A stretch of DNA of 64,000 nucleotides from a virus. The position numbers were made by a program, and so were the translations under genes. Positions 31,182 to 47,520 of this stretch are shown one piece after another (the first letter of the stretch is position 1; every line of letters begins with the position of its first letter). The notes below the pieces were generated by a model that worked only from the letters and a program-made list of their open reading frames with translations, was not told the DNA's origin and did not search any database. Location of the stretch: positions 115,554 through 179,553 of IMG/VR virus record IMGVR_UViG_3300005663_000028; one strand, written 5' to 3'.

Positions 31182-31420
31182 TTTTTCTTTCCTTCATTAG
31201 CTCTTTTTTCAATTTGTCTAATCTCTTCTTGTGAAAGATATTTGTAAGCAGCCATCCTTTGCTCTTTTGCATATTCTACTAAACTACCACAGCTAGCCCC
31301 ACCAAAAACACCTCTGACAAAAAGTTGTGTTCTTGCCGACAGATCGTCTGTATCGTATTTGTCTATAACGAATGTGGTGAATTCAGCTAATGCATAGGCT
31401 ATTTTATCGACAGACATCAT
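31178..31420 (-). CDS. Hypothetical protein
   Basis: Tiled ORF. Confidence 0.5.
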   Translation of the reverse strand: MMSVDKIAYALAEFTTFVIDKYDTDDLSARTQLFVRGVFGGASCGSLVEYAKEQRMAAYKYLSQEEIRQIEKRANEGKKK

Positions 31421-32930
31421 TAATTGTCCCTTTTTGGTTTGTTATAGTAAAATCGACATTTGTTCGAAATTCATTAATATCAGAACATCCAGCATACGAT
31501 ATTCCCGACCTTAAAGAACCTGCATATCTTTTAAGTAACTTTTCTAATGATTCTCCTAGTGGAAGGTATTTTACGCAACCTTCCGGGGCGTCATTACTTA
31601 CTGAGCCTCTCCATTTTTCTTGTACTAATCTACTGGCCATTCCTGCATAGATTTTTTCTCCGTGTTCATTTAACAAGGCGGCACTTTCCGGGCATGAAGC
31701 AAAAATCTTACCAGCCATTACACTCGATGAGCCTGCGGCTATTGCCTTAACAAAGTCTGCTGGTTCCCTAATTCCTCCATCGCTAATTATTGGTAATCCG
31801 TAGGTTCTAGAGGCTGTTATACATTTCTGGATGGCTGAAAATTGTTTCTCCGTTACACCTGCCGTATTTTTGGTTTCACAAACAAATCCTTGTGCTATCC
31901 CAACCTTTACGGCCGATGCAAAGTCTGCGCTTTCTGCGAACAAACCTGGGTTAATTGTATTTCCAACTACGATATGAACGTTTGGTGCAAACTGTTTAAT
32001 TAGACGGCCAAGTTCTATAACAGGTTCACAATATCCATGCGCTACATCAATAAAAATAATATTAGCATTAGCCCGAATGAGCTTCTTGGCTAGATCAAAT
32101 TGTGAAACACCGATACCTACCGAAACCGCTACCCATCTGTTGTTTTTATGTATTTGGTTAGTCCATTTTTCCAACACGTTATCAGAAGAGGCCCTATGGA
32201 GAACCCCCATAGCTCCTAATTTTTCTAATAAAATACAAAATTCAGGGTTGGTTACAGTGCTCATGTTAGAAGCAATTAATGGAATATCTAATTCAACACC
32301 TCTTATTATTTCGGATACAATATTTACATTAGACCGTGATTGAACTACTGATTTTTTTTGAAGAATACTGACGTCTTCGAATCCGAGAGATATTGGTGTT
32401 GTCGACATTTTGATAGAGGGGTTAATAAAATATTCACAAGTACTATGGTCAAAATGAATAATACCCCGACCGACGAGATCAAAAGCAATTTTTTCCAATT
32501 TTGAATGTAATTTTCTATGGTTGGAATTACTTGATACGGCACAGAGGTTTGTCAATGAGTTATCGTCTTTTCGGCCGTTAATGTGGTGGATTATCCACCC
32601 ATTATCTATCAAATTAAACCCCGTGGTTTCTTCCATAACTAGATGGTGTTCCCCAATATAGCGTTTTCGTCTTTCATCCCAAATCATTATGTAATTACCA
32701 GGCTTACCGGCCTTGATTTTCCTACCGAATCTGGTTTTTATTTTTTGGTTGTCCCTGCTTCTGGAGCATGGTCCACACAAATCCTTTCCCCATTTTTCCC
32801 TAGAATCTTTGGCTTTTCTCCACTGTGGTTTACTTTCTGTCCCACAAGAGTCACATATCTTTAATACTAGGTATGTTCTCTTTAATGTTGAAAAGTCGTT
32901 TATTGTTTTATTATCAAGTGTTTTGATCAT
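31404..32930 (-). CDS. In-frame fusion of Zn-finger/HNH endonuclease (aa 1-174) with IMPDH/GMP-reductase family enzyme (aa 175-508)
   Basis: N-part CDSC/CGPC, EHHLVME...HHINGRKDDN..TNL; C-part IPLIASNMSTV, IDVAHG, GIAQGFVCET (catalytic Cys), DGGIR, YAGMAS, PEG. No CBS domains; flap lacks the IMPDH Arg-Tyr dyad, so closer to GuaC. Confidence 0.85.
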   Translation of the reverse strand: MIKTLDNKTINDFSTLKRTYLVLKICDSCGTESKPQWRKAKDSREKWGKDLCGPCSRSRDNQKIKTRFGRKIKAGKPGNYIMIWDERRKRYIGEHHLVMEETTGFNLIDNGWIIHHINGRKDDNSLTNLCAVSSNSNHRKLHSKLEKIAFDLVGRGIIHFDHSTCEYFINPSIKMSTTPISLGFEDVSILQKKSVVQSRSNVNIVSEIIRGVELDIPLIASNMSTVTNPEFCILLEKLGAMGVLHRASSDNVLEKWTNQIHKNNRWVAVSVGIGVSQFDLAKKLIRANANIIFIDVAHGYCEPVIELGRLIKQFAPNVHIVVGNTINPGLFAESADFASAVKVGIAQGFVCETKNTAGVTEKQFSAIQKCITASRTYGLPIISDGGIREPADFVKAIAAGSSSVMAGKIFASCPESAALLNEHGEKIYAGMASRLVQEKWRGSVSNDAPEGCVKYLPLGESLEKLLKRYAGSLRSGISYAGCSDINEFRTNVDFTITNQKGTINDVCR

Positions 32931-33043
32931 GTTGTTGCTTCAGCTAGTCTGATAATTATATTCTGGGTCTTGTTCGAATTCAGAGAAGGTCGTTGCGGGA
33001 CCAGCAAGATGTCGTTAAAACAAAGATCGTGTTGTTCAGTCAT
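32927..33043 (-). pseudogene. Remnant 5' end of the original guaB/guaC gene (38 aa)
   Basis: MTEQHDLCFNDILLVPQRPSL... matches the L.FDDVLLVP..S N-terminal motif; TAATG- and ATGA-coupled on both sides. Confidence 0.75.
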
Positions 33044-42805: not shown

Positions 42806-43019
42806 GATTCCATTCCTTCCATTTTTCGATAAGTGCCATCGCCTCTTTGTCAGAAAGCCATTGTTTAGACACTCCGTTTTCTGCGGCGAAGTAGAACTGT
42901 TTGCCTGTTGTGGATTGTTCGTTTACGGAGACATGGATTATATGGTTGGTTCTCATACACGGATAATATGGATACCCAAGCCCTTCATCTCTGGTCATAG
43001 TAGCGATAATCCACTTCAT
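42792..43019 (-). CDS. Hypothetical protein
   Basis: Tiled ORF. Confidence 0.5.
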   Translation of the reverse strand: MKWIIATMTRDEGLGYPYYPCMRTNHIIHVSVNEQSTTGKQFYFAAENGVSKQWLSDKEAMALIEKWKEWNRGPK

Positions 43020-43022
43020 ATT

Positions 43023-43682
43023 CTACTTCGCTCCCATTTCATTTGTAAGCAAATTCAAATCGATTTCTTTATCAAGCTCGCAACCTCTCAGCCACTTGGC
43101 GAATTGTGCAACTCTTAATCCCGCTGAAACGTTTGCGCAGTAAATGGTTGTCTTAGCCGTACACGACCCATTGTAAGTTTCTGCTTGTGGGAAAAATGTT
43201 GTGCCGTAGTGCTCTCGTGAAGTGTCATCATAGACGATGAATATTCTCATATATTCAGCGCTCATCCTGGCATCTATAAATAAGTCTGCTCGTTCTTTTA
43301 CGGTTTCGAAAATTGATTTTCTGGTGGAAATTTTATCTACACAACAAAATAGTACACCCCCAGTGAAGTCCATTGATCGGAACTTACGGTTGACGGTAGT
43401 TATTTCAATTGCGGGGTTGATAGCAGCACAAATATCCTTGACTGCATCTACTTTGAATTTTCCGAGATCGGCTTCGTGATATCCTTGACAAGCAAGATTC
43501 TCTACAGAAACTAAATCGAAGTCGATAAGCCGTAGTCGTGGCACTCCAATAGCTGCCAGTTGAAGTGCCACTTGTCTTCCTCCTGCACCGACACCAACTA
43601 TTGTGGCTCTAATAGCGGATAGTTTATCTGGTGGTATTAATTCTTTTTGTCTGATGTCTCTATTTTTTAGCAGATTTTCCAT
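43023..43682 (-). CDS. ThiF/E1-like ubiquitin-activating enzyme
   Basis: IVGVGAGG, IDFDLVSVENL, KVDA, CCVD...R, DARM, candidate catalytic SCTAK. Confidence 0.88.
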   Translation of the reverse strand: MENLLKNRDIRQKELIPPDKLSAIRATIVGVGAGGRQVALQLAAIGVPRLRLIDFDLVSVENLACQGYHEADLGKFKVDAVKDICAAINPAIEITTVNRKFRSMDFTGGVLFCCVDKISTRKSIFETVKERADLFIDARMSAEYMRIFIVYDDTSREHYGTTFFPQAETYNGSCTAKTTIYCANVSAGLRVAQFAKWLRGCELDKEIDLNLLTNEMGAK

Positions 43683-43726
43683 GGTTTTCTACTCCTTTTG
43701 TGTATAATAAGGTTGGAGGAAAGGTT

Positions 43727-44365
43727 ATGAAATATTCGAAAGCCCAACAAAGTCGCGTAGATAAGGGGTTGTGCGCTAAATGTGGGGAGCCCACTGATCA
43801 TACTGTTTATTGTTCCAAATGTACTAGAGTGTGTACTGAATACAATAGACAGAGAAGGGCCAAGCGACGAGAGTTGGGAATATGTTATACGTGCGGAAAC
43901 AGTACGGAAAATAATCGTGCGTATTGTCCAGAGTGTCTAAAAAAGGCTCGTAAATATAGAACTGCTTACAAATTGAAGGCTCCATACGGTGTTTGTGTTA
44001 TTTGTCGTGTGGAATCATGCCTGCCATCATTAGTAGACGCAACATTATATCGGCGAATTTGTCAGAACTGTTATCTTAAAAACGCGTCCTGTTCACAATT
44101 AGGGTCGGTTGAATACTGGAAGCAATTGCTTTGTAAACTAGAAGCCCAACAATTTCGTTGTGTATATTCTGGAGATGAACTTATATTGGGAGTTAACGAT
44201 TCCATGGATCATATTTATCCAAAATCTAGGTATCCTGACAAAGCCCTAGACCCATCTAATATCCAATGGGTTACTCGCACAGTCAATATGGCTAAGGGGT
44301 GTTTAGATCATGATGAGTTTTTAACCCTAATTCGCCGTATCAACAACCGTTTTCCAAAAGACTAA
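43727..44365 (+). CDS. Zn-finger/HNH homing endonuclease on the opposite strand
   Basis: GGAGG SD, ATG 43727, upstream TATAAT; repeated CxxC; CVYSG...MDHIYPKS...NIQWV...VNMAKG. Confidence 0.8.
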   Translation: MKYSKAQQSRVDKGLCAKCGEPTDHTVYCSKCTRVCTEYNRQRRAKRRELGICYTCGNSTENNRAYCPECLKKARKYRTAYKLKAPYGVCVICRVESCLPSLVDATLYRRICQNCYLKNASCSQLGSVEYWKQLLCKLEAQQFRCVYSGDELILGVNDSMDHIYPKSRYPDKALDPSNIQWVTRTVNMAKGCLDHDEFLTLIRRINNRFPKD

Positions 44366-44430
44366 TCCTCTTCTGTGTTCATGATTAGTTTTCGTTGACG
44401 AATATCCCTATCTTCAATAACTGAAGTCAT
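44362..44430 (-). pseudogene. Remnant 5' end of the original E1 gene (22 aa)
   Basis: GGAG SD, then MTSVIEDRDIRQRKLI versus E1 start MENLLKNRDIRQKELI. Confidence 0.75.
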
Positions 44431-44432
44431 AC

Positions 44433-44609
44433 TTAATCTCCATAAAACCCTAACGTTGCTGAATTAGTTCTAGCCCAGCTTTTTTCTTCTGTTGTCGCCT
44501 TTACTCCATCTATGATGTCTCTAATTTGCAATTCTAATTCTGTCATATCTCGCGGATCGATCCTAACCATTTCGTTTTGTATTTTTTCGATTTTTTGTTC
44601 TGCATTCAT
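44433..44609 (-). CDS. Small hypothetical protein (58 aa)
   Basis: Hand translation; ATGA-coupled to JAB stop; ends 2 nt before the E1 remnant. Confidence 0.5.
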   Translation of the reverse strand: MNAEQKIEKIQNEMVRIDPRDMTELELQIRDIIDGVKATTEEKSWARTNSATLGFYGD

Positions 44610-45529
44610 TGTGCTGCCCTCATTATATCCAATCGTTCATCGGCATTGTCAGCCGCCCAGGTTTCCATAATTCTGGTGATTCTTGCTGTTGGTTTATTAA
44701 CTGGCATACCATCTTTGAACCACGTTTTGGTAATCGGGTTATAACTGTACCAAAAATTATCTTCAGGGTTCCAGCATTCAGCATCTCCGTCTGCAAGCCA
44801 ATAACAATCATAGTCATTGTCGTCGTAAAGGTAGTCGTTATTGTCGTTGTCAGAATGACAACTGATAATGTCCAGAGAATCGGAGGGTACCGATTCTCGG
44901 TTTTCCATATAGTAATCAAGCCAATTATCGTCATCGTCTAGAAATTGAGTTCCTCTATTAACAAGGGGTTTGTTAAAGGCTGAACAGAACTCAATTTCGG
45001 TGACTTTGTCTTTGTATTCCTTTTCCCATTCTTCTTTATTCGAACCCTGAAAGGGCTCTGACCAATCAATCTCTATCGGTAGTTCTTTGATTATACCAGG
45101 GCCAATGTTTACCTTTAGTCTACAATAGGTTGCACCTCCATTGGCTATGATGAACATGACTGCCCAATGTGGATGGGAGAAGGCGTTTCTGAAGTTGTTC
45201 TCGTCTGTTGGGGAGGGTTGTGGGCAATTTGCCGGATGGGAATGTGCGAGAATATTTAGACATTGCCACGAAGCAAGTCCAGCGTCTACCATGCGTTCCC
45301 CAAAATCAGCCAAATCTTCGGGGTCCATGTCGAATGATACACTTGTGCATTTTTGTTTGATCAATGCGAAGTCGGTTACTAATAGCGGGTCTTCTGTGCC
45401 AGTTATGCAATAACCGGCAACTTCTGTCGACCCCCTATTCCGCATCCACAAAAGCTTAGCGTAAGCATACGCGGAGAAACGCAATGCGTTTCCGAAGGTC
45501 ATCTTTGGTTCCATAAAATTGTTAGACAT
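44606..45529 (-). CDS. JAB/MPN+ (JAMM) metalloprotease
   Basis: EVAG...AHSHP-x5-PS-x2-D motif; acidic C-terminal tail. Confidence 0.85.
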   Translation of the reverse strand: MSNNFMEPKMTFGNALRFSAYAYAKLLWMRNRGSTEVAGYCITGTEDPLLVTDFALIKQKCTSVSFDMDPEDLADFGERMVDAGLASWQCLNILAHSHPANCPQPSPTDENNFRNAFSHPHWAVMFIIANGGATYCRLKVNIGPGIIKELPIEIDWSEPFQGSNKEEWEKEYKDKVTEIEFCSAFNKPLVNRGTQFLDDDDNWLDYYMENRESVPSDSLDIISCHSDNDNNDYLYDDNDYDCYWLADGDAECWNPEDNFWYSYNPITKTWFKDGMPVNKPTARITRIMETWAADNADERLDIMRAAQ

Positions 45530-45623: not shown

Positions 45624-46907
45624 TCATACTCCTGTTCCCGCTAGTATACAATAATGTTTGTCGTCGCATTTCTCGCACGATGAAACACCACAGTAAAGAC
45701 ACCTGTTAATACAATTACTGCAAGTCGTTTTACTGCAATCACCGCAAGTGTCTTCACAATTTGGACAGAGGTAATCTTCGCACACGCTACACTTCGGAGC
45801 ACCATCTACACAGTCGTCGCATATAGTTGAACTGCAATCGGCACAATTATTAGAACATTCGATGCAATGTTCTCTGTCTTCGTCACATATTTCACACGTT
45901 CTTATGCACGAACCGCAATGAATGTTCGTGCATAGGTTGCATGTATTAGCACAAGAGATACATAAGCCCTCATTACACTCATCACAAGATGTACTACATT
46001 CGTCACATCGCCAATTACCACAATCTTCGCAATAGACCATTTCTGCGCAATGGTCACATAGGCCGGTGTAACATTCTTCACAATAGATTGATTGTTCTTC
46101 GGATATAGATTCGTTACATGAATCACAACTGAGTTGATTTTCTTTGTACCAATACCGAAGTTTCTCATGGGGGAATTCGTCGTTATATGTTCGCATGATT
46201 GCTTCAACAGTTGAGAAGTAGTACTCAAGCGACCCATGGTTTAGTGCATTTGTCAGAGTTTCTTCCCCTTCTTGACCTTCGCAAAGTTTTTCGTTTAATA
46301 CGTGTGGGTGGGTAAGACCTTTGTTGCTTGATTGAACATTGTCGATAGATTCAATTGTTAATCCATCTTGTGGACATTGAATGTCTAGCTGCAACCAAAA
46401 GCCCCCTAATTCAACCTCCTCATTCCCGTCTTCCAAACACACATCGTTGATTTTGACATTTAGCCATCCATTCCTAAATATGACCTCAGACCATTGAGTG
46501 TTGATAGCTGTGATTTCTTCGATTGCTTCTTTCATAGTAAGCGGAACCATTGATTGGTCTGTTGCCCATATTTTCACATTTGCAGCTACCCTTGCCAACA
46601 TAGTCTCTACATCTCTTCCCAACTCAGGTAACATGGAGTCGACTATGTTTTGGTAAACGCCTGGGGTTACTATACCAATATATTCTTCGGTCCACTCTCC
46701 ACTCTCATTGTCGATAACATGGGTCGACTCCTGGGTTCTGGGTATCCCACTCAAACGGTAGATTTTTTCCCACTTAGCCATTTCCTGAATTTTTTGCTCC
46801 ATACCTTGGAGATAATGACTTATTCTGTCGCTAGGTGGGGTGGCCGCTTGTTCTACCATCCAATTTTTGTATGCTAGGGCAGCACGACGTACAAGTTTAT
46901 CATTCAT
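45624..46907 (-). CDS. Prokaryotic E2-like conjugating enzyme with C-terminal CxxC array
   Basis: HPHV-x4-LCEG E2 active-site motif; about 19 CxxC in the last 167 aa. Confidence 0.72.
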   Translation of the reverse strand: MNDKLVRRAALAYKNWMVEQAATPPSDRISHYLQGMEQKIQEMAKWEKIYRLSGIPRTQESTHVIDNESGEWTEEYIGIVTPGVYQNIVDSMLPELGRDVETMLARVAANVKIWATDQSMVPLTMKEAIEEITAINTQWSEVIFRNGWLNVKINDVCLEDGNEEVELGGFWLQLDIQCPQDGLTIESIDNVQSSNKGLTHPHVLNEKLCEGQEGEETLTNALNHGSLEYYFSTVEAIMRTYNDEFPHEKLRYWYKENQLSCDSCNESISEEQSIYCEECYTGLCDHCAEMVYCEDCGNWRCDECSTSCDECNEGLCISCANTCNLCTNIHCGSCIRTCEICDEDREHCIECSNNCADCSSTICDDCVDGAPKCSVCEDYLCPNCEDTCGDCSKTTCSNCINRCLYCGVSSCEKCDDKHYCILAGTGV

Positions 46908-47188
46908 TAGGATTCATCCACGAACAAGTGTTTAATTTGATCCCATGGATACCATTCATCTCCAATGTAAATACCGAGACCCTGTTCATGCATGAATCCC
47001 AGTATGTTTTGTGCGGTTTCGTCGCCGTCATCCATTACCCTGCTCAGGGCTTCCATATCGCTATCTGGCATAGAGTCCCACACATTGGAATATGTTTGTC
47101 CGTGATCATCATAGATGCGATACCCAAATGTTTCATTACCATATGGATGGTTGATGAAGATGGTGGGTTGTAGTGTGATTCTATTCAT
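46907..47188 (-). CDS. Hypothetical acidic protein within the Ubl cluster
   Basis: TAATG-coupled to E2. Confidence 0.55.
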   Translation of the reverse strand: MNRITLQPTIFINHPYGNETFGYRIYDDHGQTYSNVWDSMPDSDMEALSRVMDDGDETAQNILGFMHEQGLGIYIGDEWYPWDQIKHLFVDES

Positions 47189-47231
47189 TTAATCTACCCA
47201 ATCTCGACTTAGGTCCATAACCAACCGCTTA

Positions 47232-47280
47232 GTAAAAGAAAGGGGGCCGGGGAGATTCCCCGACCCCCATTTTCTTTTAC
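47232..47280. terminator. Bidirectional intrinsic terminator after Ubl
   Basis: 12-bp GC stem GGGGGCCGGGGA-GAT-TCCCCGACCCCC flanked by GTAAAAGAAA / TTTCTTTTAC. Confidence 0.75.
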
Positions 47281-47520
47281 TTATTCACCTTCGATTTTTT
47301 TCGGCGTCAATGAGACCCGATCCTCATTTTGCAGAACATAGTCCTCATACGCTTCAATTGAGGTTCCATTCGCTCGAATCCGAATAAGAAACTCATCAGG
47401 ATCCCCGTTAAACGACACCTCAAGAAACTTCTCCAGAGTTGTGTTAGGGACCACGGGAATCCGAACAGGGATTCCACCATCAGCATTACTTACCAAGGTT
47501 ACTTCAATCATACCTTCCAT
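47281..47520 (-). CDS. Ubiquitin-like (beta-grasp) protein
   Basis: 79 aa; IEVTLV...TTLEKFL...IRANG...LQNEDRVSLTPKKIEG-E, with penultimate Gly. Confidence 0.78.
   Translation of the reverse strand: MEGMIEVTLVSNADGGIPVRIPVVPNTTLEKFLEVSFNGDPDEFLIRIRANGTSIEAYEDYVLQNEDRVSLTPKKIEGE

Follow-up and report, generated by a model that had tools for sequence, protein, structure and literature searches.

Genes and features at the E1 locus

We analysed 64,000 nucleotides (nt) of viral DNA, referred to below as the window, which form the final 64 kb of the 179,553-bp IMG/VR virus record IMGVR_UViG_3300005663_000028. A minus-strand operon spans approximately 43-47.5 kb of the window. The beginning of its ThiF/E1-like gene (E1) occurs there twice, once in a short open reading frame (ORF) of 22 amino acids (aa), here called the stub, and once as the start of the full-length gene, and a gene for a predicted HNH nuclease lies on the opposite strand between the two. 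The features of this region are the following.

44606-45529 (-): JAB/MPN deubiquitinase-like gene (JAB), 307 aa; PF14464 Prok-JAB, 1.6e-5
44433-44609 (-): 58-aa ORF between JAB and the stub, overlapping the JAB stop by 4 nt
44362-44430 (-): stub ORF, 22 aa, MTSVIEDRDIRQRKLIMNTEED; recognised by an E1 N-terminus profile
44383-44430 (-): stub codons 1-16 (MTSVIEDRDIRQRKLI), read as the displaced 5' end of the resident E1 copy; profile score 44.5 bits
44362-44382 (-): stub tail, MNTEED and stop, without homology to E1 codons 17-22
43727-44365 (+): free-standing predicted HNH gene, 212 aa; phrog_1035, phrog_144
43683-43726 (no strand): divergent spacer, 44 nt, with both ribosome-binding sites (RBSs) and a conserved core
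43023-43682 (-): E1, 219 aa, starting with MENLLKNRDIRQKELI; PF00899 ThiF, 4.2e-24, residues 19-202
43635-43682 (-): E1 codons 1-16 (MENLLKNRDIRQKELI), read as an imported head; nucleotide similarity to the HNH-bearing loci L008 and L007

An earlier sequence-only reading of this locus had described a stub at the expected E1 start, then an opposite-strand HNH gene and then the real E1, and we recovered this arrangement in full: the stub begins 2 nt past the stop of the 58-aa ORF, with the sequence GGAG 9-12 nt upstream, and the HNH and E1 genes lie at the coordinates listed above. It had also held that the gene was kept working. E1 contains the Gly-rich nucleotide loop GVGAGGRQ, and its length of 219 aa is that of most of 120 homologues; by these features it is a full-length ThiF/MoeB/E1 adenylyltransferase gene of the working type. 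JAB is the gene immediately before E1 in HNH-free relatives, and it is complete in the window, since its C-terminus (...ADERLDIMRAAQ followed by the stop) aligns with the JAB ends of these relatives.

The stub as a genuine E1 5' end

A profile of 16 columns was constructed from the N-termini of 40 E1 homologues, with the window excluded, and scored on 127,900 six-frame positions of the window. The real E1 start scored 48.0 bits and the stub 44.5 bits, the third-best position reaching 0.7 bits. On the strength of this gap the stub is identified, far beyond chance, as a genuine E1 5' end; the motif also has the same offset from the initial Met in the stub and in E1. The stub further occupies the position where E1 is expected to start, translationally coupled to the preceding 58-aa ORF. 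HNH-free relatives have an E1 start that overlaps the JAB stop (L005, L020, and L023) or lies 2 nt after it (L022). The window is the only one of all fetched loci that has two matches to the E1 start.

Over codons 7-16 the stub and E1 share seven identical residues (R8, D9, I10, R11, Q12, L15, and I16). Six of them are encoded by different codons (AGG/AGA, GAT/GAC, ATT/ATC, CGT/AGA, CTA/TTA, and ATC/ATA), Q12 being CAA in both copies; every one of these pairs had been reported from the sequence and was confirmed. Their explanation as synonymous recoding did not hold up, the differences being those of normal divergence between the alleles of two lineages. When orthologous E1 genes from different phages are compared, the codon differs at 53-63% of conserved residues. 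Six of seven lies within this baseline (binomial P about 0.13 at p = 0.58, by our own arithmetic), and thus the recoding needs no special explanation. The nucleotide identity of the stub to the window's own E1 start is 54% over 48 nt and 63% over codons 8-16, where 10 of 27 nt differ.

Homology between the stub and E1 stops exactly at codon 16, the stub tail being 11-28% identical to E1 nt 49-66. The tail is made up of the 17 nt that separate codon 16 from the HNH stop, together with the overlapping stop codons. It reads ACA GAA GAG GAT TAG, compared with ACA ATA GAA GCA TAA for the JAB tail of the L008 module, and it may represent the JAB tail of a donor, a stretch too short for proof. Among the four HNH-bearing loci with enough flanking sequence (the window, L007, L008, and L019), a stub is kept in the window only.

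The end of the 58-aa ORF and the start of the stub (window 44420-44450, TTTTATGGAGATTAAGTATG) resemble the end of JAB and the start of E1 in L022 (1990-2014, ATTTATGGAGAACTGATTATG). This likeness may reflect shared descent of the junction, or merely a shared ribosome-binding site.

The HNH gene and its family

The 212-aa protein matches phrog_1035 'endonuclease VII' (4e-11), phrog_144 'HNH endonuclease' (1.3e-5), and phrog_589 (7.5e-4). Three family members score 13-18 bits against Pfam HNH_4 (cut-off 22), each time over the same C-terminal stretch, and a sequence search of the PDB with the HNH protein gave no match. The protein contains about five CxxC pairs, which are followed by a C-terminal DH(161-162)...N178...N187 arrangement. 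D161, H162, N178, N187, and the five CxxC pairs are invariant in 11 aligned members, including 39%-identical paralogues. An AlphaFold2 model has a mean predicted local distance difference test (pLDDT) value of 86, and the top Foldseek matches of the model in the PDB are almost all HNH domains, among them the NmeCas9 HNH domain, the Gme HNH nickase 4h9d (TMt 0.58), and retron/Septu HNH domains. These are weak matches, with a best E-value of 2.3e-3 and none at 1e-3 or below. The DHIxPxS...N...N motif presumably resembles that of Cas9-type HNH domains. We accept the protein as a predicted nuclease of the HNH superfamily on these sequence and model features.

The family is rare, with nine proteins recovered by a word-seeded search of a collection of 5.8 billion proteins. 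When viral_contigs and metagenome_contigs were scanned with the HNH protein or the alignment, just L008 again, a 42% paralogue, and distant matches were returned.

In some relatives a paralogue of the HNH protein (39-42% identical, E 3e-47) is found one junction upstream, between a Cys-rich E2-like gene and JAB, on the opposite strand. Its copies lie at L005 2319-2996 (-), L006 2319-2651 (-), L020/L021 1245-1832 (-), and L009/L012 3001-3594. The copy in L006 is shortened to 110 aa, and the JAB N-terminus of L020 departs from the usual M..P.MTFG..LRF head, which suggests head swapping, together with decay, at a second site of the operon. The HNH gene of L007 (2654-3346, -) encodes 230 aa, with an aberrant extended C-terminus that diverges after DEFFGL and overlaps a 67-aa ORF located between JAB and HNH (2519-2722, +). 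The contig of P0061, an HNH-free sister of L007, has a 71-aa ORF at that place, which overlaps the E1 start. The L007 copy of the HNH gene may be decaying.

A mobile module of HNH, spacer, and E1 head

We read seven HNH-bearing loci: the window, L007, L008, L016, L017, L018, and L019. HNH is the divergent neighbour of E1 in all seven, and the spacer between them, 42-47 nt long, is conserved. It carries the RBSs of HNH (GGAGGAA) and of E1 (AGGAGTA) and has the conserved core TTATACAC ... AGGAGTAAAAA. In five of the seven loci E1 starts with (M/V)ENLL; the other two have a more distant HNH protein (about 56% identical) and E1 heads of another type. Nucleotide identities along the module and the adjoining gene are as follows.

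L007 versus L008: HNH 82%, spacer 89%, E1 nt 1-21 100%, E1 body 66%
Window versus L008: HNH 74%, spacer 73%, E1 nt 1-21 90%, E1 body 65%

The module is more conserved than the E1 bodies that adjoin it. By this pattern HNH, the spacer, and the E1 head are taken to travel as a single module. At the JAB-E1 junction HNH is present in the seven loci and absent in L004, L005/L006, L020/L021, L022, L023/L024, and the contigs of P0002 and P0061.

Trees of E1 were constructed from residues 34 onward, with the head left out. A quick tree proved suboptimal, as a constrained search gave a likelihood 57 units higher, and the topology was taken from a careful tree. When the MENLL-headed, HNH-bearing E1 bodies were forced into one clade, the log-likelihood fell by 279 units (approximately unbiased (AU) test, p = 2.8e-12). 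Seven rows of the careful tree bear the HNH label, and to explain them seven changes are needed, at least five of which are forced by well-supported (starred) branches. These results demonstrate that the E1 bodies are polyphyletic and that the HNH module is mobile across E1 lineages.

Two pairs of sister E1 proteins, each with support of 100/99, demonstrate the exchange of heads directly. P0069 (L008) has an HNH neighbour and starts with VENLLEN; its sister P0066 (L023/L024) is HNH-free and starts with MTQELTIS, the E1 start overlapping the JAB stop. Similarly, P0049 (L007) is HNH-bearing and starts with VENLLEN, as against MVNDLAD in the HNH-free P0061. In a blastn comparison of L008 with L023, homology is lost past the JAB sequence ...ERP and comes back at E1 codon 9; therefore the insert in L008 consists of a new JAB tail (TIEA and stop), HNH, the spacer, and a new E1 head. 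Because JAB and E1 overlap in the empty site, insertion requires that both gene ends be rebuilt.

The claim that the HNH gene carries its own copy of the E1 5' end, with an RBS, is borne out by the divergent arrangement with a spacer in all seven loci, by the (M/V)ENLL head shared among polyphyletic bodies, and by the different heads of the HNH-free sisters. Two traits that mark a free-standing homing endonuclease gene (HEG) are both found here, patchy presence at one site among otherwise collinear relatives, and discordance between the phylogenies of element and host gene with co-converted flanks. Filled and empty alleles have no fixed difference in codons 8-18. There is a tendency at Leu15 and Pro17 (TTR/CCA versus CTN/CCS), which may be an effect of base composition.

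Proposed resident and imported copies of the E1 start in the window

The E1 body of the window (residues 34 onward) belongs to a clade with P0002-P0024 (support 100/99), and nearly all members of this clade have stub-like heads. All five members whose neighbourhood was read (P0002, P0004, P0005, P0010, and P0024) are HNH-free at the junction; in the first four of these, E1 overlaps the JAB stop or lies within 34 nt of it. In the five E1 proteins with the closest bodies (77-80% identical), the head, for example MSTIIEDRDIRQRELI, agrees with the stub at 11-13 of 16 residues and with the present head at 9-10 of 16. HNH-free relatives had been predicted to start like the stub, and the closest ones do. 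The present head is best matched (13 of 16) by P0022, P0069, and P0089, the first two of which are HNH-bearing; the bodies of these three proteins are 63-71% identical to that of the window.

The same pattern is seen in the nucleotide sequences. The first 21 nt of the stub are 76% identical to those of L022/L020/L005 and 43% identical to those of the window's own E1, and the first 21 nt of E1 are 90% identical to those of L007/L008 and 48-52% identical to those of L022/L020/L005. Further on, E1 nt 49-657 are 64-65% identical to L008/L007. Over nt 1-48 the stub is 67-73% identical to L022/L020/L005, compared with 68-73% for the functional E1 body against the same relatives. Since the stub is as close to these relatives as the E1 body is, it has undergone no noticeable decay, and the event is therefore not ancient.

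The clearly foreign part of the head is E1 codons 1-7 (43662-43682), so that an imported tract would reach at least codon 7. It probably extends to codon 16: had it ended earlier, both copies of codons 8-16 would have started out the same, yet today 10 of their 27 nt are different. By residue 34 (G) the sequence matches the type of the window's own clade, which would place the right-hand limit of the tract between codons 16 and 33.

Proposed course of events and alternative explanations

We consider it likely that an HNH module from a co-infecting relative was inserted at about codon 16/17 of the resident E1 and that the resident head was displaced rather than overwritten. The present E1 is most likely a chimaera of an imported head and a resident body, as the differing affinities of the two parts suggest. 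From these affinities we infer the direction of the exchange, with the stub as the resident copy and the head as the imported one.

In this scenario an HNH-bearing relative and the ancestor of the window would have met in one cell, and the ancestor's E1 would have suffered a break around codon 16/17, next to RDIRQR, the 5' motif that is conserved best in the gene. The conserved stretch encoding RDIRQR would be the target, and the imported allele would be resistant to cutting. The right end would have been repaired by homologous invasion of the donor's E1, with copying proceeding leftward through the donor E1 head, the spacer, HNH, and the JAB tail. On the left the copied strand would have been fused to the broken end in a non-homologous join, probably because the recipient has the 58-aa gene where the donor has JAB. 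The module would then comprise a few codons of JAB tail, the opposite-strand HNH gene, the 44-nt two-way spacer with both RBSs, and at least codons 1-16 of the donor E1. It would be tolerated at the junction by giving the upstream gene a new end and E1 a new start. Resident codons 1-16 would survive upstream as a coupled 22-aa ORF, probably translated and functionless, and translation of E1 would now begin from the imported start. In other phages the module would have overwritten the resident junction cleanly. Loss of the cut site through the new head, as proposed earlier, is plausible and usual for such elements.

Several observations weigh against this scenario. The nearest HNH relative, in L008, is merely 74-75% identical, so that the putative donor is unsampled, and both the cleavage of DNA by the HNH protein and the position of its cut are predictions. 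Codons 8-33 are uninformative, which leaves the right-hand limit of the tract poorly defined, and at residue 16 the present head has an I, the type found in the window's own clade. No HNH-free genome close enough to represent the true empty site was found, the best reaching 78% amino-acid identity. A further objection comes from L004 (P0024), which lies within the window's E1 clade, is HNH-free, has no stub, and starts E1 with MENLINRD. The sequence-only reading had named HNH-free relatives with the MENLLK version of the start and no stub as evidence that would refute it; one relative formally answers to this description, and the closest relatives have stub-like heads. A clade of the window with P0024 is not rejected (p-AU 0.87), and MENL could be native to the E1 lineage of the window.

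P0024 is the sole sequence of this kind among the 22 other database E1 proteins of the clade. The careful tree groups the window with P0002/P0003/P0004 and places P0024 just outside, with weak support (88/75). L004 has a non-coding JAB-E1 spacer of 170 nt (784-953), compared with an overlap or at most 34 nt in other HNH-free genomes, and this spacer may be the scar of a lost module; a search of it for an HNH remnant gave nothing above noise.

The P0024 head is the starting point for the alternative that survives best, which we regard as unlikely. The whole of E1, and perhaps everything downstream, would come from an HNH-bearing parent in which MENLL is native. The E1 of the other parent would have been broken near codon 16 and illegitimately joined to the 3' flank of HNH, with a second crossover far away, and the stub would be the remnant of this other parent. 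Such a recombinant would also be HNH-driven; it would have a long conversion tract and a present head native to its body, and it differs from the insertion of a module in tract length only. An MENL head without HNH inside the E1 clade of the window fits this explanation, as do the AU result for the window and P0024 and the lack of an informative site that would mark a switch back to the resident sequence before residue 34. Against it stand the placement of P0024 on the careful tree, weak as it is, and the identity of the window body, which is 80% to P0004 and 71% to P0024. The tract is moreover over by about codon 8-9 in both well-resolved sister pairs, and the order in which relatives are ranked is similar for JAB, to the left, and for the E1 body, to the right.

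The two starts could also have arisen in situ, by tandem duplication of the window's own E1 5' end when HNH was inserted (a target-site duplication), the copies then diverging. They are indeed in register, with an equal offset from Met. We nevertheless hold this to be very unlikely in view of the 54% and 63% identities of the copies given above: divergence of this extent would have scrambled an unselected stub, whereas the stub still matches relatives at 67-73% of nucleotides and 11-13 of 16 residues. The 90% identity of nt 1-21 of the present head to the L007/L008 heads also opposes it.

That the stub is a chance short ORF, an assembly chimaera, or part of an intron with an antisense ORF is least credible of all, even for a metagenome-assembled viral contig such as this record, given a profile score 44 bits above background, the lack of any nucleotide repeat able to mislead an assembler, the same E1 and HNH proteins recorded on three contigs, the absence of an Rfam match to an intron or any other RNA family over 43000-44800, and the own start and RBS of E1. 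The repeat search returned short repeats at chance level. At the joint of stub and HNH it gave a 14-nt stretch matching at 13 of 14 positions (44308 and 44379), and a weak 10-nt hairpin is also present there (44358-44367 / 44383-44392); both were judged not significant.

Comparison with known systems

The kind of event that we propose is known elsewhere, and the window is an unusually clear example of it in a phage. The closest known parallel is found in fungal mitochondria, where mobile endonuclease ORFs (mORFs) make gene hybrids: atp6 in Allomyces macrogynus, atp6, atp9, cox2, and nad3 in Glomus sp., atp9 in Rhizopus, and cox2 in Mortierella (PMC3630166, where the original Allomyces atp6 case is cited). 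A foreign C-terminus is fused in frame and expressed, and the native one persists further downstream as a displaced duplicate (PMC3630166). At the DNA level the two copies of Glomus atp6 are 63.5% identical, and their protein sequences are similar; the native copy clusters with close relatives, unlike the inserted one (PMC3630166). In both systems a free-standing endonuclease ORF brings a foreign gene end, the native end is displaced nearby, and DNA identity between the two is low. The window case is the 5' mirror image of the fungal hybrids. In the latter the C-terminus is replaced, in organelle genomes, by elements of the LAGLIDADG or GIY-YIG type on the same strand, whereas in the window the N-terminus and the start are replaced in a phage, with an HNH gene on the opposite strand. 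Unlike the fungal mORFs, the module in the window also provides the upstream gene with an end and brings a two-way spacer that holds both RBSs.

A second group of comparable elements comprises the free-standing seg and mob endonucleases of T4-like phages (SegF, SegG, MobE, and others), for which intronless homing and marker exclusion have been described (PMC2988022; PMC2790892). They spread in mixed infections through double-strand-break repair, with co-conversion of flanking markers (PMC2988022; PMC2790892), and in ICP1 phages nuclease genes mark the boundaries of genetic exchange (PMC10448857). The window has in common with them a free-standing phage HEG located by conserved genes, and a predicted HNH class with zinc-finger DNA-binding parts. 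The T4 elements normally leave no duplicated gene fragment, whereas the window keeps one, and cleavage and homing by its HNH protein are predictions. The HNH family of the window also differs from them in being separate, small, and below every Pfam HNH threshold.

Finally, HEGs have split phage genes into two working pieces: mobE in nrdA of Aeh1, mobA in gene 39/60 of T4, and a seg-like gene in gene 43 of Aeromonas phage 25 (PMC2988022). As in these cases, the HEG of the window interrupts the coding region of a conserved phage gene that nevertheless stays functional. Both fragments of the split genes are needed and reassemble as protein; in the window, by contrast, the upstream fragment is redundant, and a complete replacement head, including RDIRQ, is present.

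Neighbouring genes and other observations

Upstream of JAB (45624-47520, -) the window encodes a protein of 427 aa that contains a long CxxC array, followed in the list by ORFs of 93 aa and of 79 aa, the latter ending in ...KKIEGE. Pfam has no family for any of the three. In combination with JAB and E1 they resemble an operon for ubiquitin-like conjugation carried by the phage, and the same operon is conserved in many contigs of large uncultured phages (L005, L007, L023, and others).

The 58-aa ORF has 17 homologous library proteins at E-values of 1e-3 or below, mostly of 53-60 aa and 43-58% identical, with a conserved DMT..EL.IR motif, which marks it as a member of a real small-protein family. 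None of the fetched loci and none of three related phage records contains a match to it, and single-protein scans for the genomic context of its family returned solely a spurious match inside a 570-aa protein.

A search of a phage DNA collection with the 2.8-kb region gave no match, and a promoter and terminator scan of the region gave counts not above those of shuffled sequence.

Elsewhere in the window, a 508-aa ORF (31404-32930, -) joins an HNH_3 domain (residues 95-139) in frame to an IMPDH/GMP-reductase domain that is complete (182-501) and has a head of its own (LGFEDVSILQKKS). It is preceded by a 38-aa ORF (32927-33043, -) with an IMPDH-like head (CFNDILLVPQRPS). If this case holds, the retention of stubs may be a habit of the repair pathway of this phage.

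Implications

A wider reading of these observations is possible, one that we put forward tentatively and with considerable doubt. The lineage would regularly repair homing breaks by one-sided invasion and a non-homologous join, each time leaving a dated, cut-marking footprint of a gene head, and the IMPDH/GMP-reductase stub with its HNH domain would be a further instance. The HNH family would be specialised in parasitising the ubiquitin-like conjugation operons of phages, and its module, with a gene tail and a gene head, would be suited to overlapping junctions.

The window preserves a natural record of how a selfish nuclease can invade the first codons of a needed gene and leave it functional, the start, the RBS, and the end of the upstream gene travelling along. 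As the stub marks the join at E1 codon 16/17, beside RDIRQR, it provides a testable guess of the target site of this HNH family. For annotation and phylogeny the locus calls for caution, as the first codons of E1 track the history of the nuclease and not that of the gene. The Ubl-E2-JAB-E1 operon itself would appear to be conserved enough across many uncultured large phages to sustain a dedicated homing element.

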